Source: Deltaproteobacteria bacterium
GTDB taxonomy: Bacteria; Desulfobacterota; DSM-4660; Desulfatiglandales; B25-G16
NCBI GenBank assembly: GCA_020349945.1
Contig: CP070704.1
Coordinates: forward strand, 748,899-812,898
Reading direction: 5' to 3'
Length of the DNA stretch: 64,000 nucleotides
The notes beneath the pieces were generated by a model. It searched no databases and had not been told where the DNA came from. It worked only from the letters and a program-made list of their open reading frames with translations. The number at the start of each line of letters is the position of its first letter. The stretch's first letter is position 1. Both the position numbers and the translations under genes were made by a program. Of this stretch, positions 8,750 to 62,545 are shown one piece after another.

Positions 8750-8803
8750 GGCGTTCCAACAAGGAGGTCATATGGGCCTCCATATCTTGCGGTGCTTTTC
8801 CGA

Positions 8804-29496: not shown

Positions 29497-29525
29497 TTGA
29501 CAACCATCAGCTGTTAAAATACTAT
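29497..29525 (+). promoter_or_regulatory. candidate sigma70 promoter (copy A)
   Basis: TTGACA (29497-29502), 17-nt spacer, TACTAT (29520-29525). The same architecture is conserved at 38998-39026. Confidence 0.55.
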
Positions 29526-29573
29526 GCCCCCGATTTCTTAACCCTTTAACCATTCGTTCTGGGGCAAGGAGTT

Positions 29574-29618
29574 ATGGTGATTTTCCGGATGATCAGACGA
29601 GTACAGAAGCCTCCATAG
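29574..29618 (+). CDS. candidate leader peptide MVIFRMIRRVQKPP (14 codons, Pro-Pro-stop)
   Basis: ATG preceded by AAGGAG. Conserved in the paralogous leader (MVIFQIIPIQRPP). The two differ in length by exactly one codon, and both end CCT CCA stop. Confidence 0.45.
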   Translation: MVIFRMIRRVQKPP

Positions 29619-29655
29619 GGGAATAGATAGCCTTTTGGGGGCTTTGGTATTTTTG
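29607..29655 (+). terminator. terminator-like hairpin overlapping the uORF stop (candidate attenuator, copy A)
   Basis: 9-bp stem AAGCCTCCA (29607-29615) / TGGGGGCTT (29636-29644) with one G-U pair and a 20-nt loop, followed by GGTATTTTTGG. The 5' arm consists of the last three sense codons of the uORF, ending directly at its stop codon. Confidence 0.4.
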
Positions 29656-29697
29656 GTGGGAGGCCAGAGAGAAACTTGTAAAAAAGGAGGAAGTGAG

Positions 29698-31161
29698 ATG
29701 GAAGCTCAGAAGATGCCAAATGGTGCACTGAGGCCTTGGAATGTTGCTGATTTGCCGGCACCACCAAAGTTCAATTTTCGCAATGCAATGGCAGTGATCG
29801 GGCCAGGGACCATTGCCTTGAGCATGTCAATCGGCAGTGGTGAGTGGTTGATCGGTCCGAGCGCTGCAGTTAGATTTGGGACCTCCGTGATGTGGATCGT
29901 AATCATCTCGGTCTTTTTCCAGGTTTTCCTGAATCAGGAATTTGCCCGATATACCCTCTACACCGGAGAGCCGGTGCTTACCGGTTTCATGAGGACCAAG
30001 CCAGGGCCCAAGCTCTGGGGTTGGCTTTATCCCCTGTTCGGTATGCTCCAGGTAGCATGGCCCGGTTGGGCTGCGGCGGCAGCAGGATGCCTTTTTGCAG
30101 CCCTCTATGGCCATTTGCCGGACGCGGCCGTTGCTGGTGACCGAAGTACAATGCTTGTACTTGGTTATATATTATTCTTTGCCTGCTTAGTGATCGTCCT
30201 GTTCGGGGGGCGTATAGAGCGCATTCTCGAGTGGCTAGCCTGGGGGATGGTTACATGGATTGTCGTCTACCTCCTCATCGTAGATGTATTCTTTGTGCCC
30301 GCAAAGGCGTGGACGGATGTGGCAGGGGGGTTCTTTAAGTTTGGCTCCATTCCCAGGGGGCCCACAGGCGTGGATTGGCCGCTGATGGGGGCCTTTGCAG
30401 CCTACGCCGGGGCAGGAGGTATCGGCAACTGCTGGATCACCAACTGGCTACGGGACAAGGGCTTCGGCATGGGTAAGGTCATCGGGTTCATCCCCAGCGC
30501 AGTGGCAGGTAAGGAGGTCAAGCTTGCCCATGTGGGAACTGTCTTTGAGCCCACCGAGAAGAATATGAGCACCTGGACGCAGTGGTGGAAGTACCTGTGG
30601 GTGGACCAGGGCATCCTCTTCGGTGGAGGGTGTGTCATAGGGATGTACTTGTGCGTGCTGCTCGCCTACGGGGTAATCCCCCATGGTACAGACATAGCTG
30701 GGCTGGCGACTGGTGCATATCAGGCAGATTACTTGATGAAGAGAGTCGGTCGTATCATGTGGTTCCTGACCCTGCTAAACGGATTCTGGGTCCTGTTTGG
30801 CACCCAGCTCAATAACATGGAAGGCCTCACACGGGTGATCACCGATCACATTTGGACTGGTAGTGAGCGGGCGCGCCGCGTGGGCGATGTGCGTTATGTA
30901 TACTACACCGTACTCGCCATTTTTGTCATCTGGGGATGTATAGCCATCAACATGGCTAAGCCGTTTGTTCTGATCATCCTCGGGGCAAATATGGCAGGAT
31001 TCATCTTTGTGTTCTCGGGGGTCCACATCCTGGTGACACAGCATCGCTTCCTGCCCAAGGAGGTGCGGGCCCCCATGTGGAGGCAAGTGATCATAGCCCT
31101 GAGCTGCATCTTCTTTGCCTTCTTCGTGCTTATGAATATCGTGAAACTGATCGGAGGCTAG
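29698..31161 (+). CDS. Nramp-like polytopic membrane permease (non-canonical; substrate unknown), paralog A
   Basis: The ATG at 29698 follows AAGGAGG. GPGTIALSMSIGSGEWL resembles Nramp TM1 but with GSGE instead of DPGN. Highly hydrophobic, ~11-12 predicted TM segments by eye. The TTG at 29635 in the ORF track would run through the leader and is unlikely. Confidence 0.6.
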   Translation: MEAQKMPNGALRPWNVADLPAPPKFNFRNAMAVIGPGTIALSMSIGSGEWLIGPSAAVRFGTSVMWIVIISVFFQVFLNQEFARYTLYTGEPVLTGFMRTKPGPKLWGWLYPLFGMLQVAWPGWAAAAAGCLFAALYGHLPDAAVAGDRSTMLVLGYILFFACLVIVLFGGRIERILEWLAWGMVTWIVVYLLIVDVFFVPAKAWTDVAGGFFKFGSIPRGPTGVDWPLMGAFAAYAGAGGIGNCWITNWLRDKGFGMGKVIGFIPSAVAGKEVKLAHVGTVFEPTEKNMSTWTQWWKYLWVDQGILFGGGCVIGMYLCVLLAYGVIPHGTDIAGLATGAYQADYLMKRVGRIMWFLTLLNGFWVLFGTQLNNMEGLTRVITDHIWTGSERARRVGDVRYVYYTVLAIFVIWGCIAINMAKPFVLIILGANMAGFIFVFSGVHILVTQHRFLPKEVRAPMWRQVIIALSCIFFAFFVLMNIVKLIGG

Positions 31162-31221
31162 GTTAGGGTATAGGAACTCCCAGATATGCAGTTGACCCGC
31201 GTCAGTCTCGGATCATATTGT

Positions 31222-31267
31222 TGAAGGCGGTTATAGATTTTTGCTTTAACCGCCTTCAGCCTTTTTG
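31222..31267 (+). terminator. intrinsic terminator after permease paralog A
   Basis: 12-bp perfect stem TGAAGGCGGTTA (31222-31233) / TAACCGCCTTCA (31247-31258), followed by GCCTTTTTGG. Confidence 0.6.
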
Positions 31268-31540
31268 GAACAGGGTTGTCGAAGGATGGGGCTGGTAGCT
31301 GTCTGATCTTCATGTCTTGCCCACTCACACTCCTCCTTTTCTTATAAACAACACTCGCCTGGTCAAGGTTTTATGGCAGAATTGAGGTGGACTTTTGATC
31401 AACCGATGTTCTATATGATTATATGGGGGGAGACATGTTTCTAATAGGGGGTAAATGTGGCTTCGACCCCGAGATCTAACTGTCGTATGGGCCGGTAGGA
31501 CCATATAGAAACAGATCAATAACCAATGGAGGGATAGAAG

Positions 31541-33433
31541 ATGACTGGGGGATACATGGGAAGGATTGGTTTTGTGGATCTATCCACGGGGGAGATAAGA
31601 GAGGAAAAGCTCGATGAGAGACTTGCACGGAGCTTTATAGGGGGTTATGGGCTTGGGGTGCGAATCCTGTTCGAGCGTCAGAGAGGAGGAATAGACCCCT
31701 TGGGGCCGGAGAACATCCTCGGCTTTACTGCTGGGCCACTGACCGGGACACAGAGCCCGACCGGTGGTAGATATATGGCGGTATGTAAATCGCCGATTAC
31801 TGGCGGTTGGGGAGATGCCAACTCGGGTGGATACTTTGGCAGTGAGTTGAAGTCTGCAGGCTGGGATGCGATCTTCATTTCCGGCATTGCGGCCTCACCT
31901 CAGTATCTTGTAGTGACAGAGGATGAACTGGAGTTGAGAGACGCATCTCATCTGTGGGGGCGAGATACCGTTGATACTGAGGAAATACTGCGCGAGGATC
32001 TGGGGATCTCCAAACTCAGAGTCGCCTGTATCGGTCAGGCCTCAGAGAGGCGGTCGCTGATCAGCGGCATTGTCAATGATAAGGGGCGTATAGCAGCTCG
32101 CTCGGGTGTTGGTGCGGTCATGGGCTCAAAGCGGCTCAAGGCTTTGGCTGTGTACGGAGGGAAAAAGGTCGCTGTAAGCGATAAGAAAAGGCTTGACCAG
32201 CTGCGCAAGAGTTTCATAGAGGAGCTTCGTGAATCAAAGGGCTTCCCTCGGTTACTTATGGATTATGGAACTTGTGGTCTGACCGATGGACTGGTGGCAG
32301 GGGGAGCAACCCCTATAAAAAACTGGCTTCTTGCGGGCAAGCAAGCCTTCCCGACCCTGGATAAGATAGCCGACTTCGATACTGTTATTCAGCACCAGGT
32401 AAAGCGATATGGTTGTTCCAATTGCCCTATTGTCTGCGGAGGTATCTTCGAGGTCTCTCAGGGGGCCTATCCCGTGGCAGAGGTTCATAAACCAGAATAT
32501 GAAACCATAGCTGCATTCGGCACCATGTGCATGAACGATGACCTGATATCCATTATCAAGCTGAATGATATGTGTAACCGAAGCGGCTTGGATACCATCT
32601 CGGCAGGAAGTGTCCTCGCGTTTGCCATGGAATGCTTTGAAGAAGGGATTATCACCGAAAGGGATACCGATGGGATCAGGCTCACCTGGGGGAACGCAGA
32701 GGCCATGATCGCCATGCTCGAGAAGATCATCCGCCGTGAGGGCTTTGGTGACATTCTGGCTGACGGGGTTAAGGCCGCTGCCCGTGAGATCGGGGAAGGC
32801 GCTCAGGAGTGCGCTATCCACGTTGGAGGACAAGAACCAGGACTGCACAACGCATTGTTCCTGCCGGGCCGGGGCACGGGGTTTGTCTGCGATCCCACCC
32901 CCGGCCGCCACACAGCTGCTGCTCCTGCGGCTCGTATAGATGCAGGTTCGCCAGCCATTATTGCCCCTTACCCGGAATTGCAGTTCCGGGGTTACGAACG
33001 CTATGAATATAAGAGCAAAGGGCCTGCCAGCGCTACAGCCTCTTGCTACTGGCAGGTGGGGGCCTGCGCAGGAGTTTGCCTCTTTCCGGTTATCTTCTTT
33101 GGTAATTACCCGCTTCTAGATTTTCTTAACGCTGTCACCGGATGGGATATGGATGTCACTGAGGCCCTGGAAACGGGGACAAGGATTCAGACGTTGAGGC
33201 AAGCCTTTAACCTTAGAGAAGGGATCGAGCCACGTGAGATAAAGCTGCCTTCCCGCATGGCCGGGGTCCCTCCTAAGAGTGATGGTCCACTTGCAGGCAT
33301 CACAATAGACATAGACACGCTAGCCTCTGAATACCGTAAGGCAATGGGATGGGATCCAGACACGGGCGACCCAACCGAGGCCACCCTTCGGCGTCTGGGA
33401 TTAAAAGAGCTAGCAGAAACCTATTGGAGGTAA
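31541..33433 (+). CDS. aldehyde:ferredoxin oxidoreductase family (tungstopterin AOR)
   Basis: 630 aa. GRIGFVDLSTGEI...GGYGLG N-domain, EYETIAAFG, CNRSGLDTIS and the Fe-S motif CSNCPIVCGG. Confidence 0.9.
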   Translation: MTGGYMGRIGFVDLSTGEIREEKLDERLARSFIGGYGLGVRILFERQRGGIDPLGPENILGFTAGPLTGTQSPTGGRYMAVCKSPITGGWGDANSGGYFGSELKSAGWDAIFISGIAASPQYLVVTEDELELRDASHLWGRDTVDTEEILREDLGISKLRVACIGQASERRSLISGIVNDKGRIAARSGVGAVMGSKRLKALAVYGGKKVAVSDKKRLDQLRKSFIEELRESKGFPRLLMDYGTCGLTDGLVAGGATPIKNWLLAGKQAFPTLDKIADFDTVIQHQVKRYGCSNCPIVCGGIFEVSQGAYPVAEVHKPEYETIAAFGTMCMNDDLISIIKLNDMCNRSGLDTISAGSVLAFAMECFEEGIITERDTDGIRLTWGNAEAMIAMLEKIIRREGFGDILADGVKAAAREIGEGAQECAIHVGGQEPGLHNALFLPGRGTGFVCDPTPGRHTAAAPAARIDAGSPAIIAPYPELQFRGYERYEYKSKGPASATASCYWQVGACAGVCLFPVIFFGNYPLLDFLNAVTGWDMDVTEALETGTRIQTLRQAFNLREGIEPREIKLPSRMAGVPPKSDGPLAGITIDIDTLASEYRKAMGWDPDTGDPTEATLRRLGLKELAETYWR

Positions 33434-33505
33434 ATAAAACACTCAGGGTCAGGATAGACTCTAGAGAAAATAAAAAGCGGTCGCACAGGATAAGGAGGGA
33501 GGATC

Positions 33506-34876
33506 ATGGCAAATGAGAAGACAGCATTAGCAGTAGATCCTTATGCGCGCAAGGTGGAATATATCCTCGCGCCACCTGACACCTTTTGGAAGAGGATAAA
33601 GTTCCTGGGCCCAGCGCTCATCTTAGCAGGGTCTATCGTCGGGTCAGGCGAGCTCATCGCTACTACCACGCTTGGCGCAAAGGTAGGGTTCTACGCCCTT
33701 TGGATGATCATCATCAGTTGCCTGATCAAGGTCGTTATACAGGAAGAGCTGGGCCGGTATACCATCGGCTCTGGAGAAACGGCCCTGCGCGCCTTTGATC
33801 ATATCCCAGGCCGCCTCCACGTGTCGTGGGTTGTCTGGTTTTGGATCATTATGACCATTGCGGTTACCTTTCAGGCAGGTGGCATTGTAGGAGGGGTTGG
33901 GCAGGCCTTGCATTTGGCCTGGCCGCAGCTTTCTGCGAACTGGTGGACTGTCATCATCACGGCCGTTGGCATCGGACTGACGGTGCGGGGCTACTATGGT
34001 ATGGTCGAGAGGATAGCGGTGTTCATGGTGGCTGTCTTCACCTTCATCACTGTAATCTGTGCCTTCTTGGTCCAGTGGACCCCACACGCGTTTTCCCTGG
34101 CAGACTTCGTAGAAGGCTTGACACTGAAGCTCCCCAAGGGCGGGGCAGGAATTGCCTTCGCCGTCTTCGGCATCACCGGTGTGGGTGCCACGGAGCTTGT
34201 GATGTACCCGTACTGGGCTGTGGAGAAGGGGTACGCCCGCTTCGCTGGGCCGACGGAAGAGACAGAGGCCTGGCTCGAACGAGCCAAGGGCTGGGTCCGA
34301 GTGATGCACGTAGACATTATAGTAGCGATGATCGTTTTTACTATCGCCACCATTGCCTTCTACATCCTCGGTGCAGCAGTGCTGCATGGTATGGAGAAAG
34401 TCCCTCAGGGATATGATATGGTCGCCACACTCTCTAACATGTACACGGAGTCGATCGGCAGCTGGGCATTCTACCTCTTCCTTGTAGGCGCGTTTTTTGT
34501 GCTCTTTTCCACCTTCTTCGTGTATATTGCCTCGTTGGCTCGGATGGCGACGGACTGCCTGAAGGTCCTGCGCCTGATCGACTTCGAAGACTACAGGGCA
34601 CGCATGCGGTGGATCGGGTTCTTCTGCATTATCTTTCCCGTGCTGTACTGTATCCTCTACGTCAAGCTGGCGGCACCAGTGTACATGGTGCTGATCGGTG
34701 GGGTAGCCCAGGCCTCGTTCCTTCCGATCATCGGCTTCTCCGCCCTTTACCTCCGCTACAAGCGAATGGACAAACGCCTGCTCCCGGGCCGAGCCATTGA
34801 TATACTGATGTGGATCTGCGCTGTTCTCATCACCATCATCGGGGTCTATGCGGTGTATCAGAAATTCGCCGGCTGA
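33506..34876 (+). CDS. Nramp-like polytopic membrane permease (third, more divergent paralog)
   Basis: 456 aa. LGPALILAGSIVGSGELIATT has the same GSGE variant of the TM1 motif. Hydrophobic throughout. Confidence 0.6.
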   Translation: MANEKTALAVDPYARKVEYILAPPDTFWKRIKFLGPALILAGSIVGSGELIATTTLGAKVGFYALWMIIISCLIKVVIQEELGRYTIGSGETALRAFDHIPGRLHVSWVVWFWIIMTIAVTFQAGGIVGGVGQALHLAWPQLSANWWTVIITAVGIGLTVRGYYGMVERIAVFMVAVFTFITVICAFLVQWTPHAFSLADFVEGLTLKLPKGGAGIAFAVFGITGVGATELVMYPYWAVEKGYARFAGPTEETEAWLERAKGWVRVMHVDIIVAMIVFTIATIAFYILGAAVLHGMEKVPQGYDMVATLSNMYTESIGSWAFYLFLVGAFFVLFSTFFVYIASLARMATDCLKVLRLIDFEDYRARMRWIGFFCIIFPVLYCILYVKLAAPVYMVLIGGVAQASFLPIIGFSALYLRYKRMDKRLLPGRAIDILMWICAVLITIIGVYAVYQKFAG

Positions 34877-34981
34877 GAGAGGCAGCAATCAAAGAAATGC
34901 ATGGGAGCAAAGGGAGCCTTTTTGTTCGTCTTGGTTATAACCATATCATAAAGGCGATCTAACGAGAGGGGTGTCATATAA

Positions 34982-36901
34982 TTGAAACATCTACTTGGGC
35001 CACTTACCGTAAAGGGCATGGAGCTTCGAAACAGACTTGTTATGCCGCCTATGGCGACGAATTTTGCTTCAGAGGATGGGGCAGTAACCAAACAAAGCAT
35101 AGGCTATTACAGAGAGCGCGCTAAAGGTGGGGCAGCATTGATTATCGTGGAGATGAGCTATGTCCACCTAACTGGTAAGGCCTTTCCCTGTATGCTTGGT
35201 GTTTACGACGATAAATTTCTTCCGGGGCTCAACGAACTTGCTGAGGCAATTAAATCATACGGGGCTGGGGCTGCATTGCAGATAGGGCACGCCGGGCGAC
35301 AAACACGCTCTGAAATCTCCGGACATCGAATACTGGCCCCGTCTGCTATACCGTCAAGGGGTACGGCAGAGGTTCCTAAGGAGATGTCAGCAGGGGAAAT
35401 CGTGGAGATTACACATGCATTTGGAAATGCCGCACTGCGCGCAAAGAACGCCGGTTTTGATGCAGTGGAACTTCACGGGACTCATGGCTATTTGCTCAAC
35501 CAATTTCTATCTCCATATACAAATAAAAGAACAGATATATATGGGGGTAGTTTCGAAAACAGACTGAGATTTCCTCTAGAGGTAATCCAGGAGGTAAGAT
35601 CAAAAGCGGGGGAAGACTATCCATTAATCTTCAGACTGTGCGCCAATGAATATATTGAAGGCGATGAGGCCATTACCCTTGATGTGGCCAAAAGGATAGC
35701 CCCGAGACTGGTTGAGGCAGGCATAGATATACTTCACATAACCGGTGGAATGGGCGAGACAAGAGATCATGTGATCCAACCCTTATATTACGGCCATGGC
35801 TATCATGTATACCTTGCAGAGGGGATAAAGCGGGTTGTGGGTAGTATTCCCGTTATTACAGCAGGAAGCATTACAGATCCTTATATGGCTGAGAAGATAC
35901 TGGAGGATGAAAAGGCAGACTTGATTGCTATGGGACGGGGGCTTATTGCAGACCCCATGTTTCCCAACAAGATAAAAGAGGGCAAGATCAAAGAAATCAG
36001 ACGCTGTATCCGTTGCAATGAATGCATCGGTCGCTTCAGGAGAGGCTACCGCATTAGCTGCAGTGTTAATCCCACAGTGGGCAAGGAGACACATAGTGAA
36101 CTGAGGCCAGCAAAAGAGCCAAGGAGAGTTCTCATAGCGGGTGCGGGTCCGGCGGGTATGGAAGCAGCAAGAATCCTCTCCTTAAGGGGACATGAAGTAA
36201 CCCTGTGTGAAAAAGGTGATGAGCCTGGAGGACTTCTTCGGATAACTACGGTTCCAGGGTGGAAAAAGGATATTCTTGCTCTTGTTGATTGGCTAAAGAC
36301 CCAATTAGAGAAGAGTAGCGTAACTGTCCACCTTAATACCGAGGTCACCCCTGAATACATCACTAAATTCGGTCCGGATGTCCTCGTAGTAGCTACAGGA
36401 TCCACGCCCAGGAAACCAAATATTCCCGGGATAGAATCAGCTATAACAGCTATAGATGTCTTAGAGGGTGTGGCTGTGGGAGACAGGGTAGTCATCTGTG
36501 GAGGAGGGCTTGTTGGCTGTGAGATAGCATGGTATCTCGCTGAGCTGAACAAAAGGGTAACTATCGTCGAAATGCTTGATGAGGTGGCTGCGGATATGGA
36601 GACTGGAACCAGAACAGCGATATTGAAGGAACTTCGAGAACATGAGGCAGATATAATCTGCAATCTAAGGATGGAAGAGATTATTCCAGGTAAGGGCATA
36701 CTCGGTGTTGACAAAAAATTGACCAGGAGAGAAATAGAGGGAGATACAGTAGTATTAGCGATGGGTTTTGACCCAAATCGCGCGTTATTTGATGGAAAAA
36801 ATAAATCATATGAGGTGTATGGTATTGGTGACGCCAAAGAGCCACGGCGCATCATTGATGCGATACGAGAGGCAGATCATATAGCCCGCTTTGGGATATA
36901 A
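34982..36901 (+). CDS. OYE-like NADH:flavin oxidoreductase fused to an FAD/NAD(P)-binding domain (2,4-dienoyl-CoA reductase-like)
   Basis: TTG start. N-terminal LRNRLVMPPMATN...GAALIIVE TIM-barrel, Cys cluster CIRCNECIGRFRRGYRISC, Rossmann motif VLIAGAGPAGMEAA. Confidence 0.85.
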   Translation: MKHLLGPLTVKGMELRNRLVMPPMATNFASEDGAVTKQSIGYYRERAKGGAALIIVEMSYVHLTGKAFPCMLGVYDDKFLPGLNELAEAIKSYGAGAALQIGHAGRQTRSEISGHRILAPSAIPSRGTAEVPKEMSAGEIVEITHAFGNAALRAKNAGFDAVELHGTHGYLLNQFLSPYTNKRTDIYGGSFENRLRFPLEVIQEVRSKAGEDYPLIFRLCANEYIEGDEAITLDVAKRIAPRLVEAGIDILHITGGMGETRDHVIQPLYYGHGYHVYLAEGIKRVVGSIPVITAGSITDPYMAEKILEDEKADLIAMGRGLIADPMFPNKIKEGKIKEIRRCIRCNECIGRFRRGYRISCSVNPTVGKETHSELRPAKEPRRVLIAGAGPAGMEAARILSLRGHEVTLCEKGDEPGGLLRITTVPGWKKDILALVDWLKTQLEKSSVTVHLNTEVTPEYITKFGPDVLVVATGSTPRKPNIPGIESAITAIDVLEGVAVGDRVVICGGGLVGCEIAWYLAELNKRVTIVEMLDEVAADMETGTRTAILKELREHEADIICNLRMEEIIPGKGILGVDKKLTRREIEGDTVVLAMGFDPNRALFDGKNKSYEVYGIGDAKEPRRIIDAIREADHIARFGI

Positions 36902-36942
36902 AGGCTGTGCCTCCCTCAGCAGGGCACCATCACAAAAAAAGC

Positions 36943-36971
36943 TTGACTGCAAATTGGTGAGGTAATATAAA
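36943..36971 (+). promoter_or_regulatory. candidate sigma70 promoter upstream of the tandem-cyclase gene
   Basis: TTGACT (36943-36948), 17-nt spacer, TATAAA (36966-36971), leaving a ~190-nt leader. Confidence 0.35.
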
Positions 36972-37167
36972 GCTATGGGATTTTCGTTGATTGTTCCTGA
37001 CACAGGGGCCTGAATTTTTTCAAAGGACGCGATCTTTTTTGGGAAAGGAGGTGGGGGAAAAGCTGTTAAGGGGCCTTGACTGTGTTGGGGCACGTGTTTG
37101 TGTGAGCAGATATCTTTCCTAGTTTCGGGGAGATACCTGTTCGTAAACAATGAAAGGAGGAACGAGC

Positions 37168-38811
37168 ATGAGCCGAACTAAAAGAACTAATCTTATCATT
37201 TCGCTGGGCATTTTGTTTGTGTTCATCCTCGCCGGCTCAGGTTATGCGTATAAGGTGATCGACCTTTCGCAAAAAGTTGAGAATGGGATGCCTGCCTGGG
37301 CTGGCAAGTGGGAAGGGATGAGCATGTGGGCCGGGGCCAAGACTCAGATGGAGTGCTACGATAAGGTGGGGAATTTTTACGGTCACGACCTGAAGTTCAC
37401 GGAGCACACCGGCACGCACATGGATAGCCCCGCTCACAACGCTTACGGACTCTGGCGACTTGATCAGATCCCGATCGACAAGTTCCATGGCAAGTGCATA
37501 ATCATGGATATGCGGCCCTGGGTGAAGGATCGGGACGGCTATGAGGTCAGCTTGGCCGATGTGAAGGCATGGGAGCAGAAGACAGGCTGCGATCTGATGA
37601 GGGATGCGGCACGGTCGATGATCTTCATGTGGACCGGCTGGGACAAGTATTGGAACGACTACATCGCGGGGAAAAACGACCGCGCTATGGGGTATCGCTT
37701 CCCTGGCATTATGGAGGATGCGGCCAAGTACTTCGCCGATTGCCGGATCAAGGGCTTCGGGTTTGATACCCTCTCCATCGATATCTACAAGAGGGTGATG
37801 GAGGGCAAGCCGGTCGCTCACCAGGCGATCTTTTCCAACAACACCTGGGTCATCGAGAACATCAAGATCGATCCCTCGGTGGCGGACAAGTGGGCCTACG
37901 CCGTACTGGCCCCCATGAAGATCTATAAAGGCTCCGGTGCCCCCGTCCGGGTGTTTGTGCTGGATGACACCAGGGCCAAGGGTATGGCCGCTTCACTGGC
38001 CTCTATGAAGGCCTTGGAGAACAAATTCATGGCGGCCCCCATGTACGATCTGGCCAACTATATCGAGAACGGGATGCACATCTGGATGGGTGTGTTTGGC
38101 ACCAACCAGGTCGGATTGGGCAATCTTAATGATTTCCGGGGCATCTATCCCTGGATCGACTATCGGGACGGTGGCTTTTACGGGCAGCAGATTTTCTGCA
38201 ACGAGCACACCGGCACCCATACGGATTCCCCCGCCCACCGTCGGGAGGGAGCGAAGTGGACCATCGATAAGGTCGCTTTGAATCACTTCGTGGCCCCCTG
38301 CCTGGTGGTGAATGCCTCCGGATATGGCCCGGAAGAGGGCGACTGGGACTTCACCATGAGCATGTTCCGGGATTGGATGAAGAAGCACCCGGGTCTGACC
38401 GTCAACAAGGGCGATATCGTCTGCTTCTCACAGAATATGGTTCACAAGTGGGCCCTCCACAACAAAGGCATCCACCGCGAGTGGGTTACCACTCACTTCC
38501 CGGGCATTGGTGGGGATGTAGCCAAGTACCTGAAGGATAAGGGCGTTGTGGGCGCGCTCACGGATGTCACCAGCATTGATGCCGCCATGCACTGCCAGAG
38601 GGGCAAAGGCACCGACCAGGAAAACAATATCACGCATGTGACCCTGTTCAGTAATGGCATCTTTGTTACGGAGAATGTCGGGGGAGACCTGCAGCAGGCC
38701 GCCAATTCCAAGGGTCTGGCCTTCGTCATGCCCTGCATGAATACCAAGAATGGATCCGGTGGCCATAGCCGCATCTGGTACTTCGAGGGCCTGGATATCC
38801 CCATCGAATAG
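37168..38811 (+). CDS. exported protein with two tandem cyclase / kynurenine-formamidase-like domains
   Basis: The ATG at 37168 follows AAGGAGG. Sec-type signal MSRTKRTNLIISLGILFVFILAGSGYA. Two copies of the HxGTHxDxPxH motif (EHTGTHMDSPAH and EHTGTHTDSPAH). Confidence 0.8.
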   Translation: MSRTKRTNLIISLGILFVFILAGSGYAYKVIDLSQKVENGMPAWAGKWEGMSMWAGAKTQMECYDKVGNFYGHDLKFTEHTGTHMDSPAHNAYGLWRLDQIPIDKFHGKCIIMDMRPWVKDRDGYEVSLADVKAWEQKTGCDLMRDAARSMIFMWTGWDKYWNDYIAGKNDRAMGYRFPGIMEDAAKYFADCRIKGFGFDTLSIDIYKRVMEGKPVAHQAIFSNNTWVIENIKIDPSVADKWAYAVLAPMKIYKGSGAPVRVFVLDDTRAKGMAASLASMKALENKFMAAPMYDLANYIENGMHIWMGVFGTNQVGLGNLNDFRGIYPWIDYRDGGFYGQQIFCNEHTGTHTDSPAHRREGAKWTIDKVALNHFVAPCLVVNASGYGPEEGDWDFTMSMFRDWMKKHPGLTVNKGDIVCFSQNMVHKWALHNKGIHREWVTTHFPGIGGDVAKYLKDKGVVGALTDVTSIDAAMHCQRGKGTDQENNITHVTLFSNGIFVTENVGGDLQQAANSKGLAFVMPCMNTKNGSGGHSRIWYFEGLDIPIE

Positions 38812-38837
38812 ATCGGGAATTCCAAATCTCTGACGGC

Positions 38838-38870
38838 AAAGGGGCTATCTTCGGATAGCCCCTTTTGATT
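38838..38870 (+). terminator. intrinsic terminator after the tandem-cyclase gene
   Basis: Stem AAAGGGGCTATC / GATAGCCCCTTT around a TTCG loop, followed by TGATT. Confidence 0.65.
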
Positions 38871-38997
38871 CTGCTAAGGGACTGGCGACCGACTCTGGCG
38901 GAATCCTCTCCTCTGTCTTAGCCCACCCGAGAAATCGTTTCGTGAAGCTTACTGGTTGACCTGTTGCAAGTCTTCTCCGATACAAAGAATTTTTGGG

Positions 38998-39026
38998 TTG
39001 ACAATCATCAGATATTAAAATAATAT
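38998..39026 (+). promoter_or_regulatory. candidate sigma70 promoter (copy B)
   Basis: TTGACA (38998-39003), 17-nt spacer, TAATAT (39021-39026). Confidence 0.55.
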
Positions 39027-39074
39027 CCAGCCGGTCTATTTGTGCTTCAACCATAACTATTGGGGCAATGAGTG

Positions 39075-39116
39075 ATGGTGATTTTCCAGATCATCCCAAT
39101 ACAAAGGCCTCCATAA
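39075..39116 (+). CDS. candidate leader peptide MVIFQIIPIQRPP (13 codons, Pro-Pro-stop)
   Basis: Positional and sequence homolog of the uORF at 29574-29618. Its SD is weaker (AATGAG). Confidence 0.4.
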   Translation: MVIFQIIPIQRPP

Positions 39117-39150
39117 GGGAATATATAACCTTTGGAGGCTTTTTTATTTC
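39105..39150 (+). terminator. terminator-like hairpin overlapping the uORF stop (candidate attenuator, copy B)
   Basis: 9-bp stem AGGCCTCCA (39105-39113) / TGGAGGCTT (39133-39141) with one G-U pair and a 19-nt loop, running into TTTTTTATTTC. Confidence 0.5.
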
Positions 39151-39256
39151 TGGTGGTCGGCCAAAATACAGTCCGTGCCAGTGGGGGGAGCTGGTAATAG
39201 TCTATCGGTTCGGCCAGGATCTGGGACAGAAAAACCTTTAGAAAGGAGGGCGTGAG

Positions 39257-40720
39257 ATGGAAGCTTCAAAGATGCCAAGTGGTGCACTGAGTCCTTGGAA
39301 TGTCGCCGATTTACCGGCACCACCGACGTTCAATTTTCGTAATGTCATGGCGGTGATCGGCCCGGGAACCATTGCCTTGAGCATGTCAATCGGCAGTGGC
39401 GAGTGGCTGATGGGTCCGAGCGCTACAGTAAAGTATGGGACCGCCGTGATGTGGATCGTTATCGTATCGGTATTTTTCCAGGTTTTCCTCAATCAGGAAT
39501 TTGCCCGGTACACCCTCTACACCGGAGAGCCGGTGCTGACCGGTTTCATGAGGACCAAGCCAGGACCAAAGCTCTGGGGTTGGCTTTATCCCCTGCTTGC
39601 TATCCTGCATGTAGGATGGCCTGGCTGGGCAGCGGCAGCGGCAGCATGCCTTTTTGGAGCCCTGTATGGCCACTTGCCTGATGCGGCTGTGGCTGCTGAC
39701 CGGAGTACCATGCTTACCCTTGGTTACATACTGTTCTTCGGGTGTATAGTCATCGTCCTTTTTGGTGGCCGCATTGAGCGCATTCTCGAGTTCGTAGCCT
39801 GGGGCATGGTTATATGGATTGTCGTCTACCTCCTGATCGTTGACATATTCTTTGTGCCCGGAAAGGCGTGGACGGATGTGGCAGGGGGGTTCTTGAAGTT
39901 TGGCTCCATTCCCAGGGGGCCCACAGGTGTGGATTGGGCCCTGATGGGTGCCTTTGCAGCTTACTCCGGGGCAGGAGGTATCGGCAACTGCTGGATCACT
40001 AACTGGCTGCGGGACAAGGGCTTCGGCATGGGGAAGGTCATTGGGTTCATCCCCAGCGCGATTGCAGGGAAAGAGGTGAAGCTCGCCCATGTGGGAAGTG
40101 TCTTTGAGCCCAACGAGAAGAACATGAGCGGCTGGAGACAGTGGTGGAAGTATCTGTGGATGGATCAGGGTGTCCTCTTCGGCATCGGGTGCGTGGTAGG
40201 GATGTACCTGTGCGTAGTGTGCGCCTACGGGATGATCCCCCATGGTACAGACATAACTGGGCTGGCGGCCGGTGCATACCAGGCGGATTACCTGGCGAAA
40301 AGGATCGGTCGTGCCATGTGGTTCCTGACCTTGATAAACGGATTCTGGATCCTGTTTGGTACCCAGCTTAGTATTACCGATGGCTTCACGCGGGTAGTTA
40401 CCGACCACGTATGGGCCTGTAGTGAGCGTATGCGCCGCCTGGGCGATGTGCGGTATATCTATTATGGTATATTCATCATCTTTGTCATCTGGGGATGTAT
40501 TGCCATCAACCTGGCGAAACCGTTCGTCCTGCTGGTCATCGGGGCGAATATGGCAGCATTCATCTTCGTGGTCTCAGGGGTCCACATTCTGGTGGTGCAA
40601 CATCTCTTCCTGCCCAGGGAGGTGCGAGCCCCCGTGTGGAGGCAGGTGATCGTAGCCCTGTCCTGCATCTTCTTTGGCTTTTTCGTGCTTATGAATATAG
40701 TGAAACTTCTCGGAGGCTAG
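39257..40720 (+). CDS. Nramp-like polytopic membrane permease, paralog B
   Basis: 487 aa, gap-free alignment to paralog A. SD AAGGAGG lies before the ATG. Confidence 0.6.
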   Translation: MEASKMPSGALSPWNVADLPAPPTFNFRNVMAVIGPGTIALSMSIGSGEWLMGPSATVKYGTAVMWIVIVSVFFQVFLNQEFARYTLYTGEPVLTGFMRTKPGPKLWGWLYPLLAILHVGWPGWAAAAAACLFGALYGHLPDAAVAADRSTMLTLGYILFFGCIVIVLFGGRIERILEFVAWGMVIWIVVYLLIVDIFFVPGKAWTDVAGGFLKFGSIPRGPTGVDWALMGAFAAYSGAGGIGNCWITNWLRDKGFGMGKVIGFIPSAIAGKEVKLAHVGSVFEPNEKNMSGWRQWWKYLWMDQGVLFGIGCVVGMYLCVVCAYGMIPHGTDITGLAAGAYQADYLAKRIGRAMWFLTLINGFWILFGTQLSITDGFTRVVTDHVWACSERMRRLGDVRYIYYGIFIIFVIWGCIAINLAKPFVLLVIGANMAAFIFVVSGVHILVVQHLFLPREVRAPVWRQVIVALSCIFFGFFVLMNIVKLLGG

Positions 40721-41590: not shown

Positions 41591-43687
41591 TTATAATCTT
41601 ATACTACATGAAACCCCGCCGACAAAGCCCGTTTCAGGAGAGGGGAAGAAACCTATCCTTGACCCAAAGGGGTATCCGCCAATGCCGCCGAATTCCTCGT
41701 ATTCTTTATCCAGGATATTGTTTACCCCCAAGAAGGCTGAGAAATCCCCCCATGTATCCTCATATGCATAAGATAGTTTTGCGTCCCATACACCGTATCC
41801 TGGAAGTTTGTCGAATGTGTTTGCCAGGTCATTCGCTAAGAATCTCTTCCCGACAAATCGAGCTCGATTCCATAAGGTAAAACCGTAGCCCAAATCTATG
41901 TTTGCTTCAATGTACCCCAGGTGTCTTGGGGTAATAGGAAGGTCCGATCCTTTAAAGGGGCCCTCTTCTATCTCTGTGTCCACAACTGTATAACTTCCAA
42001 AAAGTGTTGTCCTCGGAATGATACTTGATTCTGCCGATATTTCTATTCCTCTGTGTACTACTTCATCAAAGTTCTCATTCTGCCCAAAGGCAAAGGTCCC
42101 CACACTGGGTGGCCTAAATAGTATCTCATCCTTGACTGTCATGTGGTAGAGTGATATTCCACCACTGAATTTGGGTCCAAACCGCGTTTTCATTCCTACC
42201 TCGAAGTTTTGTCCCTTCTCTGGGCCAAGTTCTGGTGTGAAACCGAAGAAGCCTGTTAGTTCGTCCCTGTTTGGAAACCTGAAGGTCTTGGCATAACTGA
42301 AATACCCACTCATATTGTCGGTGAAAAGGTATGTGACACTTGCCTTAGGGCTGAGTCTATCAAAATCCCTCCCGCCTTCTGTTCTCGAAGTCGTTCCGCT
42401 TACCAAGTTTTCAGTTTGGCTGGAGAAATCGAAGGCTGCTCGGTCGAACCTTATCCCTGCACCCAGAATAATTCTATCAGTGATAGAAAAATCGTCATGG
42501 AGGTAAACTCCTAAGAGCTCCCTGTCGTACTTTGTAGCCTGCCTCTGGATAAAGGGGTAAAGGGGGTCAGGAAAGTCAGAAAAACTTGTTGATCCGACTT
42601 CTTCCTTGAGCAAATCTATGCCCAATATAGCCTTGTTTTTCCTACCAAATATTTCATATGTAGATGTATATCTCAATGAAAGGCTGTAGTCATCTTCTTC
42701 ATCGTCAATTATCGTAGAACCAGAACCAGGAATTGAGGTAAGGGAATCACCCTCGTTGTTGTTGTAGTAAAAAAGCAGAGAGAGTTTATTGTACTCATCA
42801 GGGATCATATCGGCGCCGAGGACTGTATTAAATTGGTCTGTCTCCCTTTTATCTTCACCGGCCACTACTGAACCCCTCCTACCAACTGCCTGTATTTCAT
42901 TCTTCGTCAGGCTCCCTGGAAGGTCTCTGTCGTCATTATGGTACCCAGCTTTCAGCGTTAGTTCGAGTGCAGGAGTCAACTGGTAGGAGAGCTTGCCTGT
43001 CCAGTCCCGTGCTGTAAAGTTAGAGTTATCTCTGTATCCATCCTCTTCACTGCGGCTTCCGAACAGAAAATAGCTAGACCTTTGTGTGGAACCCTGTACT
43101 GTTGCTGTCTGACCGTATGTCTGCCAAGTTCCCGCATCTGCTCCCAGCTCAATAATAGGTCTGCCCAGGCCCTTTTTAGTGATGATGTTTATTACAGCAG
43201 CCATGGCGGAATCGCCATAAATGGCCGTCGCTGGTCCTCGAACTACCTCTATTCTATCTATGTTATGCAAGGGGATTAGTGCCCAATCCGGATTGGATGA
43301 ATCCGCTTCATTAGCTTTCCAGCCATCTACAAGCACTAAGGTTCTTCCGCCATTGCCCCCTCCGTTGTTAAACCCGCGCGCCTCCACAGTGATTCCGGTT
43401 GGCGTGGAACCAGAAGTGTTTGTCACCATAATCCCAGCCTCTCCTCTTAGAAGTTCTGTTACTTCCTCAGCTGTTGATCTTTCTATGTCCTCCGCGGTTA
43501 TCACGGTTACATTAGCCGGAATGCGAATGATCTCTTCCCTCTCTCTACTGGCAACAACGACTATTTCCTCTAATACTATTACCTCTTTCTGCTCCGGCAT
43601 TTCCTTAGAGGCTTGTGCCAAGACAAGACCATTCAACGGAGCAAGTATTAAGATAAATAGCCTCATTACAAGGATTTTCCTTTTCAT
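41591..43687 (-). CDS. TonB-dependent outer-membrane receptor (cobalamin/BtuB-like by riboswitch context)
   Basis: Signal peptide, TonB-box-like EEIVVVASR, plug domain (IRIPANVTVITAEDIE...GITVEARGF) and a long beta-barrel region. A cobalamin riboswitch lies upstream. Confidence 0.85.
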   Translation of the reverse strand: MKRKILVMRLFILILAPLNGLVLAQASKEMPEQKEVIVLEEIVVVASREREEIIRIPANVTVITAEDIERSTAEEVTELLRGEAGIMVTNTSGSTPTGITVEARGFNNGGGNGGRTLVLVDGWKANEADSSNPDWALIPLHNIDRIEVVRGPATAIYGDSAMAAVINIITKKGLGRPIIELGADAGTWQTYGQTATVQGSTQRSSYFLFGSRSEEDGYRDNSNFTARDWTGKLSYQLTPALELTLKAGYHNDDRDLPGSLTKNEIQAVGRRGSVVAGEDKRETDQFNTVLGADMIPDEYNKLSLLFYYNNNEGDSLTSIPGSGSTIIDDEEDDYSLSLRYTSTYEIFGRKNKAILGIDLLKEEVGSTSFSDFPDPLYPFIQRQATKYDRELLGVYLHDDFSITDRIILGAGIRFDRAAFDFSSQTENLVSGTTSRTEGGRDFDRLSPKASVTYLFTDNMSGYFSYAKTFRFPNRDELTGFFGFTPELGPEKGQNFEVGMKTRFGPKFSGGISLYHMTVKDEILFRPPSVGTFAFGQNENFDEVVHRGIEISAESSIIPRTTLFGSYTVVDTEIEEGPFKGSDLPITPRHLGYIEANIDLGYGFTLWNRARFVGKRFLANDLANTFDKLPGYGVWDAKLSYAYEDTWGDFSAFLGVNNILDKEYEEFGGIGGYPFGSRIGFFPSPETGFVGGVSCSIRL

Positions 43688-43849
43688 TAGTCTACCCCCT
43701 CACTCCTCCTCGGCCAAAAAATGACGATGCCTTTCTCTTCGTATTGAGATTGTTTAAGGCACACCTTTATCTGATCAATTACCGAACTACCACCCCCTTT
43801 TTCCGTTCTCCTTTTCTCATTAGCTTCCGCAATCTTGCCAGACACGAAC

Positions 43850-43889
43850 AAAAAAATCCCCGGACCGAATAGAACCGATCCGGGGATTT
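43850..43889 (-). terminator. riboswitch expression-platform terminator (minus strand)
   Basis: On the minus strand: stem ATCCCCGGA / TCCGGGGAT followed by TTTTTTT. Located between the riboswitch aptamer and the receptor start. Confidence 0.6.
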
Positions 43890-43948
43890 CCCCTTTTTAT
43901 CCTCAAGATCTTTAGGCTAAACCCAGTCCACGGAGGTTAAGCCTTACA

Positions 43949-44111
43949 TTCAGGCAGGTCTTCTGACTCTCGGATCACTCTACTTGCTGCGCCTTCCCAT
44001 TCGGCCTCGCCCAGAACAGTGGCATTTTGCAACTTTCGTCCCCGATTACAGCGGCGGGCCCATCCCCGATTTTAACAGGGTTCCCTATTAAGCTGCTATC
44101 GAGCACCTGAA
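43949..44111 (-). promoter_or_regulatory. cobalamin (B12) riboswitch
   Basis: The minus strand reads ...AATAGGGAACCCTGTTAAAATCGGGGATGGGCCCGCCGCTGTAATC...GCCACTG...GGGAAGGC...AGTCAGAAGACCTGCCTGAA. It has the conserved core, the B12 box GCCACTG and P1 closure TTCAGG/CCTGAA. Confidence 0.85.
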
Positions 44112-44277
44112 CATAGGAGGATTTCTAGCGAAATGATAGATGAAAGTCAAGGGAAATTCTCAGCACATGATAATCCTTCGACTGAGAACTTCTGGCTAAT
44201 CAGAACTTTTCTTCCCCTATAGGCAACTCATATACAGAAAAATGCACTTAGCTGCTCTATCGCAGTTCTTTGTGTGT

Positions 44278-62182: not shown

Positions 62183-62300
62183 CAATCAGTTATAATTACA
62201 CGTTAGAGGTAACCCATTCAATTGTAAGTCCGCCTGCAGCGGACTGGGTTAGCCCATTTTCCTTGTAGACGAAGGCCAAGGCTTTTAATCTTTGATCTAC

Positions 62301-62487
62301 TATCGGTGGTACCGAAATGGTTTAAAAGGGAATCCCGTTAAAAGCGGGAACGGTCCCGCCGCTGTAACCCTGTCCCTTCTTGTTTTGTGAGAAAAGGGAG
62401 CCTTTTTAGCATGTGTGTGCCACTGTTCCGAAAAGTCGGGATGGGAAGGTAGCTAAAAGGGCGGGGGAGTCAGAAGACCTGCCCCGA
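62301..62487 (+). promoter_or_regulatory. cobalamin (B12) riboswitch
   Basis: AAAAGGGAATCCCGTTAAAAGCGGGAACGGTCCCGCCGCTGTAACC...GCCACTG...GGGAAGG...AGTCAGAAGACCTGCC. P1 closure ATCGG/CCGAT. Confidence 0.85.
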
Positions 62488-62545
62488 TGGTAATATTTTG
62501 TCGGTACTGAGCCGGCTGTTTAAGGATCAAGGAAACAGGGTGCAG

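Follow-up and report, generated by a model that had tools for sequence, protein, structure and literature searches.

The locus raises a question of gene control. In the window (the whole stretch of 64,000 nucleotides that was analysed), two paralogous permease genes are each preceded by a leader in which a very short ORF runs into a predicted transcription terminator. We propose, with a probability of about 0.5, that the leader is a cis-acting, ribosome-dependent transcription attenuator of the permease, of the kind in which the ribosome directly occludes the terminator. The leader is not homologous to any described leader and would most probably work like a known kind of control. The features on which the proposal is built are collected in Table 1.

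The two leaders and their permease genes

Upstream of the copy B promoter, a cyclase-family gene ends at 38811 and is followed by a hairpin terminator (38838-38865), and from the position of the promoter, transcription of the copy B leader would start near 39029-39034. The SD of leader ORF B is weak, with GGGG lying 9 nt from the AUG, and the GTG at 39072 could serve as the start instead. Translation of 39075-39116 confirmed that ORF B encodes MVIFQIIPIQRPP-stop, as had been read from the sequence in the preliminary description. Codons 11-13 and the stop codon (39105-39116) fall in the 5' half of the predicted hairpin, whose stem of 11 bp and 4 bp is interrupted by a bulged U and capped by a 10-nt loop. 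A simple terminator scan missed this hairpin because it allows loops of at most 8 nt. Its folding energy is -22 kcal/mol, compared with -8.5 +/- 2.3 kcal/mol for dinucleotide shuffles (z -5.76; 0/200 as stable). The 9-bp stem that had been described as using the 3' codons of the uORF for its 5' arm is present, AGGCCTCCA (39105-39113) pairing with TGGAGGCTT (39133-39141), and it does run into a U-rich tract, TTTTTTATTT at 39140-39149, which directly continues the hairpin and holds an uninterrupted U6.

Table 1. Positions of the leader elements, permease genes and neighbouring features, numbered from the first letter of the window.
Feature	Coordinates	Strand	Description
Copy A promoter	29497..29525	+	TTGACA, 17-nt spacer, TACTAT
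Leader ORF A	29574..29618	+	MVIFRMIRRVQKPP-stop, by translation; one codon longer than ORF B
Terminator hairpin, copy A (predicted)	29606..29645	+	extended stem 29599-29652, then UUUGGUAUUUUU; -25.9 kcal/mol, z -5.3
Permease copy A	29698..31161	+	identical to NCBI UCF73595.1; 84% identical to copy B
Aldehyde:ferredoxin oxidoreductase, copy A cluster	31541-33433	+	
Second, more distant Nramp-like protein, copy A cluster	33506-34876	+	22% identity
OYE/FAD "enoate reductase"-type flavoenzyme, copy A cluster	34982-36901	+	
Tandem cyclase/arylformamidase-family protein, copy A cluster	37150-38811	+	
Copy B promoter	38998..39026	+	TTGACA, 17-nt spacer, TAATAT; sigma-70-type; 10/12 consensus matches
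SD-like purine motif, copy B	39061..39066	+	UGGGGC (family consensus CUGGRG); aligned column block
Leader ORF B	39075..39116	+	MVIFQIIPIQRPP-stop; 13 codons; ATG 39075, TAA 39114-39116
Intrinsic-terminator hairpin, copy B (predicted)	39103..39143	+	fold, shuffle z-score, conservation
U-rich tract, copy B	39140..39150	+	TTTTTTATTTC; partly inside hairpin 3' arm, then beyond
Spacer, terminator to permease SD, copy B	39151..39242	+	~90 nt; holds ~62-nt segment absent from copy A
Permease copy B	39257..40720	+	487 aa, Nramp-family-like; SD AAGGAGG 39243-39249; identical to NCBI UCF73601.1
Cobalamin riboswitch 1	43936-44125	-	112.7 bits; own terminator near 43850-43900
Cobalamin riboswitch 2	62289-62500	+	86.8 bits

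The copy A leader unit (29497-29697) has the same layout. A site at 8774, found by a search for the stem/stop pattern, was considered as copy A and rejected, as it is not upstream of a paralog; tblastn and blastn placed copy A at 29.5 kb. The two leaders are 76% identical over 179 nt, so that their divergence of about 24% exceeds the 15-20 percent first given. As described, the two peptides share their first four and last two residues and differ in length by one codon (MVIFRMIRRVQKPP and MVIFQIIPIQRPP), and the stem has a U-A pair in copy B where copy A has U-G (alignment columns 70/97: UA 11, UG 3, CG 1). The further claim that copy B has the stronger terminator holds for the U tract, which is an uninterrupted U6 compared with the interrupted UUUGGUAUUUUU of copy A, and fails for the hairpin, which is less stable than that of copy A (-22 vs -25.9 kcal/mol). 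Because the U tract of copy A is interrupted, the termination efficiency of its hairpin is uncertain. From the end of the ORF, inside the terminator, the permease start codon is about 140 nt away in copy B and 80 nt in copy A; the extra spacer noted earlier in copy B exists, and by pairwise alignment its size is 62 nt rather than the ~55 nt claimed.

The protein encoded by permease copy B is a divergent member of the Nramp family (NCBIfam NF037982 at 184 bits; no Pfam match). Its TM1 (residues ~35-50) reads GPGTIALSMSIGSGEW, with an apparent GSGE at the position where canonical Nramp/MntH proteins have the metal-binding DPGN motif. Because GSGE appears to replace DPGN, the family may not be a divalent-metal transporter despite its annotation. 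The permease copy A gene is the first of a co-oriented cluster (29698-38811, + strand), closed by the terminator at 38838-38865, and the enzymes encoded there (Table 1) suggest an organic-substrate pathway rather than metal uptake. Downstream of copy B, and convergent with it, a TonB-dependent receptor gene (41591-43687, - strand) is preceded by cobalamin riboswitch 1, and the neighbourhood of a GNAT acetyltransferase and a TonB receptor recurs in L145 and L146, two of the metagenomic loci introduced below.

A leader shared by close relatives of the permease

A protein search yielded 17 permeases at 74-90% identity, the next ones being at 61% or less, and no permease relative above 57% identity was found in a species-representative genome collection. 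The leaders of the close group come from metagenome assemblies and were collected through a metagenome scan and exact-protein look-ups, which after deduplication gave 18 distinct leaders, those of copies A and B of the window (winA and winB) included (winA, winB, L081, L082, L083, L085, L105, L145, L146, L147, L148, L151, L154, L158, L159, L164, L165, and L166). One member of the permease 90% cluster is labelled Desulfatiglandales, and, like the window, the metagenome contig pair L081/L147 has a copy A and a copy B. The uORF/terminator arrangement recurs in these 18 distinct leaders, which bears out the preliminary view of it as a conserved unit rather than a coincidence of two paralogs.

The upstream elements are highly regular. 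The TTGACA -35 box is present in 16/16 leaders that extend that far, and a 17-nt spacer with a TAnnAT-type -10 box in 15/16, the exception being L158 (AATATG/TATGAA-like). A CUGGRG SD-like motif followed after 5-9 nt by AUG or GUG lies at one aligned position in 18/18 leaders; the start codon is ATG in most of them and GTG in L159. The divergent leaders L151, L154, and L165 have GGAG or AGGAGG as the SD, at an ideal spacing of 5-6 nt. The start codon is located 31-39 nt upstream of the hairpin position in all 18, despite a diverged intervening sequence. The promoter spacer itself, ATCATCAGATATTAAAA in copy B (39004-39020) and ACCATCAGCTGTTAAAA in copy A (29503-29519), is conserved beyond what a spacer needs; the sequence conserved among leaders, CATCAGATATTAAAATA, suggests an operator for a DNA-binding regulator that would overlap the promoter.

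A covariance model (R1) built from 15 leaders matched leaders only where they adjoin, in the same orientation, a permease with an identity of 74% or more; 108 loci whose homologs are roughly 40-70% identical gave no match. A match in the window at 43846-43948 (- strand, 25.9 bits) was discarded, being merely the terminator of the cobalamin riboswitch. In a home-made terminator scan, most loci of the distant homologs had no upstream terminator and the few that were present are unrelated in sequence, and an Rfam scan of 19 such loci returned no family. The restriction of R1 to the close permeases, together with the lack of a terminator at most distant loci, argues that the leader element is a lineage-specific invention. 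The most divergent permease that bears a leader, that of L158 (3001-4470; 74% identity), has a B12-binding corrinoid protein and URO-D-like methyltransferases as its neighbours. Since that metabolic context differs from the one in the window, the leader travels with the permease and not with a pathway.

The association with the permease also bears on a reading in which the leader is a stand-alone small gene or sRNA, with a promoter, a transcript of ~110 nt and a terminator of its own, and the permease is expressed from elsewhere or by incidental read-through. The complete promoter-to-terminator unit is indeed present, and terminated attenuator RNAs, such as rnTrpL, can reportedly act in trans. 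We nevertheless consider this reading decidedly improbable: the unit occurs only directly upstream of the close permeases, the stretch from hairpin to permease showed no second promoter in copies A and B, and two leaders that have lost the hairpin (L083 and L145) keep the order of promoter, ORF and permease. The A-type spacer 3' of the hairpin, at only ~35 nt, is too short to hold a promoter, and since no second promoter was found either, transcription of the permease has to pass through the hairpin.

The hairpin and the small ORF that enters it

Between the ORF and the permease, a conserved hairpin with a U-rich tail makes up a predicted intrinsic terminator, several of the U tracts being interrupted. 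The hairpin, GCCUCC...GGAGGC with an upper stem and U-rich tail, is present in 16/18 leaders at -17 to -26 kcal/mol, and 92.8% of its alignment cells are paired, with exchanges among UA/UG/CG, AU/GC, and GC/GU. Covariation is modest, with few compensatory changes, because the core of the hairpin is nearly invariant. RNAalifold on the leader alignments recovered the terminator only, with no conserved pairing upstream of it, and a search in which each RNA was folded up to the 3' arm yielded no antiterminator, that is, no shared partner for the 5' arm. Pairings that could act as an antiterminator or sequester the SD were seen in single sequences (e.g. CUGGRG with UUUCCAG) and were rejected, none being consistent across the alignment. 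An alternative structure that avoids the 3' end of the uORF, named at the outset as what would speak against the arrangement, was favoured neither by folding nor by the alignment.

Such an architecture (promoter, ~70-nt conserved leader, terminator) is typical of a transcriptional riboswitch, and transporter genes are common riboswitch targets, so that the 5' leader might be a ligand-binding aptamer with the hairpin as its expression platform. However, the 68 nt that precede the hairpin do not fold more stably than shuffled sequences (z -0.1 and +0.5 for two 5' leaders), and the RNAalifold and antiterminator results just given point the same way. Rfam scans gave no family for the leader, either at the gathering threshold over the whole window or at the E-value threshold over 38800-39300, the best match being Phe_leader at 23.3 bits compared with a gathering score of 55. 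Because the 5' leader is unstructured and non-covarying, a riboswitch is very unlikely, and the least likely of the four rivals to the occlusion model that we weigh.

Three further structural observations were made. In L083 (2766-3000) and L145 (about 360-593) the whole hairpin is cleanly deleted, from after ...CCGATA to the U-run, and the promoter, the SD, an ORF of 12-13 codons (MVAGFQEMPIFFD and MVAIFQEMPVFF, respectively), the U-run and the permease are retained. The ~62-nt segment of the B-type spacer (window 39151-39242) is conserved in L081, L105, L166, L083, L145, and L146 and apparently contains a long-range stem, e.g. CUGUCC...GGACAG in L105. A small CCUUU...AAAGG hairpin adjoins the permease SD in all leaders, and together with the stem of the B-type segment it may constitute a second, translational layer of control.

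The ORF meets the hairpin in a consistent manner, ending before it in none of the leaders, within its 5' half in 11 and beyond it in 5 (including L105). Specifically, (K/R)PP-stop lies inside the 5' arm in 11/12 distinct leaders of the subclade to which the window belongs. The peptide is MVIFRMIRRVQKPP in winA and L148, MVISRMIRVQKPP in L147, MVIFQIIPIQRPP in winB, MMVIFLIISIQKPP in L081, MMVILWVIPVQRPP in L146, MMEIFQMIPIQKPP in L166, and MVIFRMIPAGKPP in L082, L085, and L164, and that of L159, which has a GUG start, is otherwise as in L082 (VVIFRMIPAGKPP as translated). The exception is L105 (contig Ga0114921_10004836), in which one A is lost from the A-run at the junction of ORF and hairpin, so that the shifted ORF reads through the hairpin; this 1-nt deletion may be an assembly error, since the ORF is intact in its close relative L166. 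L151, L154, L158, and L165, the four more distant leaders, have an ORF that starts at the conserved AUG, continues across the whole hairpin and ends 5-100 nt past it, in two different frames relative to GCCUCC. The AUG frame of these four is open across the hairpin and 1-2 of the other frames are closed, with a joint chance of about 0.05.

Purifying selection on the peptide was not detected by the Nei-Gojobori method in this small sample (14 sequences, 10 codons), where pN/pS in the uORF frame is 1.02 for the close clade and 1.03 for the wider set. With 0.41-0.81, both remaining frames lie below the uORF frame, and a column-shuffle control gave a pN/pS similar to that of the real uORF frame, with no coding signal. 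Apparent synonymous changes at Phe, Gln, and Pro codons, noticed on inspection, failed both the pN/pS and the shuffle test. A longer ORF of 57 codons in the -1 frame (MSDGDFPDHPNTKASIRE...; 39068-39241, + strand, in copy B) overlaps the leader ORF and spans the hairpin almost to the permease SD. It was considered as a gene (GDFPD...): the frame is open in many leaders, and one test gave it a lower pN/pS. Most leaders have no start codon for it, however, so that it is probably not a gene.

The preliminary description took the conservation of the peptide as an argument for translation, and that step does not stand. The conserved PP-stop is the stem sequence itself (G CCU CCA UAA) and is limited to one subclade, MVIF is a conserved nucleotide sequence among close relatives, and the pN/pS of about 1 is no better than that of the other frames or of column shuffles; for these reasons the inference from peptide conservation is unsound. 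The case for a translated leader ORF comes instead from the SD and start codon, their fixed distance, the indels, all multiples of 3 nt, within the alignable stretch of the ORF that precedes the hairpin, and the fact that the ORF reaches the hairpin, which together suggest that ribosomes would use it.

The same facts can be weighed for a different reading, namely that the hairpin is a real attenuator or partial terminator under some other control (an RNA-binding protein, an sRNA, NTP-sensitive pausing, or a constitutive damper) and that the ORF is incidental. The pN/pS of about 1 in the ORF frame fits it, as do the coincidence of the PP-stop codons with the stem, a PP-stop that is not universal, and the unusual conservation of the promoter spacer CATCAGATATTAAAATA, a hint of additional control at the protein level. 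An incidental ORF would not account for an SD-like motif and start codon held at a fixed distance in 18/18 leaders despite divergent flanks, nor for an ORF that reaches the hairpin in every leader; moreover, the 5' leader has no repeated protein-binding motif or conserved structure, and no regulator gene is conserved beside the loci. We regard this reading as unlikely, though deserving serious consideration.

Codon content bears on yet another proposal, in which the ORF is a hungry-codon attenuator and stalling at Pro (codons 8, 12, and 13) or Ile (codons 3, 6, 7, and 9 of copy B) under tRNA limitation blocks the terminator. The permease would then be induced to take up the limiting amino acid, much as with mgtL/mgtP or ilvL, though with no alternative hairpins involved. 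All PP-stop leaders have 2-3 Pro codons, copy B and L081 have 4 Ile codons among 13-14, and any ribosome that stalls at codon 9 or later would lie over the 5' arm. On the other hand, there are no tandem runs of a single codon, the number of Ile codons differs between leaders (2 in copy A and L082), no codon enrichment is common to the divergent read-through leaders, and ATA and AGG are not rare in the host genome, so that we judge the proposal improbable. A pause at AUA/AGG as rare codons was likewise set aside, both being common in the host genome.

A proposed mechanism of direct occlusion and its relation to known leaders

Based on these features, we put forward a hypothetical mechanism in which translation of the leader ORF decides whether the permease gene is transcribed. 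We propose that transcription would start at the conserved promoter, with the leader ORF beginning about 45 nt later and ending inside the 5' arm of the terminator or, in some relatives, reading through it. The ribosome itself would be the antiterminator, a role that we assign to it because no competing antiterminator hairpin was found. A ribosome at the last codons would cover the 5' arm and the loop and, with the UAA in the A site, its footprint would extend to about 39126-39128. The hairpin would thus be blocked during the passage of RNA polymerase over the U tract, and the permease gene would be transcribed. Conversely, if the leader ORF is untranslated, or the ribosome is lagging or already gone, the hairpin would form and transcription would stop, yielding a leader RNA of ~110 nt. 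Peptide release is poor at a C-terminal Pro-Pro (PMC3985003), and we propose that (K/R)-Pro-Pro-stop would slow release and so plausibly lengthens the occupancy of the 5' arm by the ribosome. The progress of ribosomes through polyproline alters read-through of intrinsic terminators, and EF-P affects this read-through (PMC5021804). The candidates for the input signal would be the efficiency of coupling, the status of Pro-tRNA or EF-P, or a tunnel-bound ligand. What the sequences show is the promoter, the SD and start codon, the geometry of the ORF and the hairpin, all with their conservation; from these we infer that the ORF is translated, that the hairpin terminates transcription, that a ribosome occludes it and that a physiological signal exists.

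Direct occlusion is the simplest reading because no antiterminator or aptamer was found and the permease is transcribed through the hairpin. Several findings count against it: the PP-stop codons lie in the stem, so that RNA structure alone could explain their conservation, the peptide gives no sign of purifying selection, the frame is shifted in L105, the SD of copy B is weak, the U tract of copy A is interrupted, and L083 and L145 are without the hairpin yet keep the ORF. In addition, no RNA polymerase pause, which kinetic coupling would need, was identified in the leader.

The closest parallel in logic is found in the direct-occlusion systems pyrBI and msrDL, in which the ORF ends in or reads through the terminator; here the stop codon at 39114-39116 lies inside the hairpin at 39103-39143. 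The pyrBI (and pyrE) attenuators of enteric bacteria have a leader ORF that overlaps or reads through the terminator, and a closely following ribosome prevents the hairpin from forming, without any antiterminator. Exactly this geometry is seen in the read-through leaders L151, L154, L158, and L165. The pyrBI system relies on UTP-sensitive pausing of the polymerase in U-rich stretches before the hairpin, whereas no such U-rich tract is evident here and the ORF of the window's clade stops inside the 5' arm. The msrDL leader of mefA/msrD (streptococcal macrolide resistance) likewise has a very short ORF whose stop codon adjoins a Rho-independent terminator. There, a ribosome held at the leader stop codon was shown experimentally to occlude the terminator directly, and deletion of the terminator makes expression constitutive (PMC10314930). 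Unlike the leaders described here, MsrDL (MYLIFM) stalls only with a macrolide bound and without Pro-Pro, it regulates an ABC-F factor in a host of another phylum, and the leaders have no sequence similarity.

Other leader systems share some of the elements. As with trpL, hisL, pheL, and ilvL, a promoter-proximal leader peptide and then an intrinsic terminator precede the structural gene, and the short leader ORF with SD and start codon upstream of the gene, by which classical attenuators are recognised, is found in 18/18 leaders. However, the present leaders have no tandem regulatory codons, the composition of the peptide varies, there are no 1:2, 2:3, and 3:4 alternative hairpins, and the proposed logic is opposite, in that completed translation of the leader would favour read-through. 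The mgtL and mgtP leaders of Salmonella act via alternative stem-loops and Rho. In these, as in the coupling of polyproline with EF-P and as proposed here, Pro codons set the position of a ribosome that decides the transcription of a downstream transporter gene, although in our case the Pro-Pro is at the very C-terminus and inside the terminator stem. In TnaC and SpeFL, arrest of the ribosome at the leader stop codon reportedly prevents premature transcription termination, and the peptide of TnaC, like the one here, ends in Pro-stop. They block the loading of Rho, while the proposed target here is an intrinsic hairpin.

The comparison with TnaC and SpeFL leads to a variant of the mechanism in which M-V-I-F-x-x-I-P-x-Q-(K/R)-P-P is a metabolite-sensing arrest peptide, with arrest at Pro-Pro-stop masking the terminator and inducing the Nramp-like permease. 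The substrate of the permease or a related metabolite would, in the exit tunnel, block release at Pro-Pro-stop. This variant is a long shot: the TnaC and SpeFL sequences are strongly conserved, as befits ligand sensing, while the peptide here is without detectable constraint, and the conservation at the amino-acid level that marks an arrest peptide was not found (pN/pS 1.0). If it were true, a peptide of 13 residues would provide a natural small-molecule sensor and a handle on the cargo of the transporter clade; the leader would then report on the substrate of an orphan Nramp-like clade.

Whichever signal the proposed attenuator might respond to, the leader offers a concrete regulatory element of transporters that belong to an uncharacterised, non-canonical Nramp/SLC11 branch. 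The hosts are uncultured bacteria related to sulfate reducers, from which, to our knowledge, almost no cis-regulatory RNAs or leader peptides have been described. The natural variants form a ready mutational series, with PP-stop leaders, read-through ORFs and leaders in which the hairpin is deleted; if the attenuator model is right, the hairpin-less variants L083 and L145 should be constitutive. If the occlusion model is true, the leader would be a compact natural attenuator that needs no antiterminator, with Pro-Pro-stop as a release delay built into the terminator stem, and a condition that alters read-through would point to the substrate of the permease.
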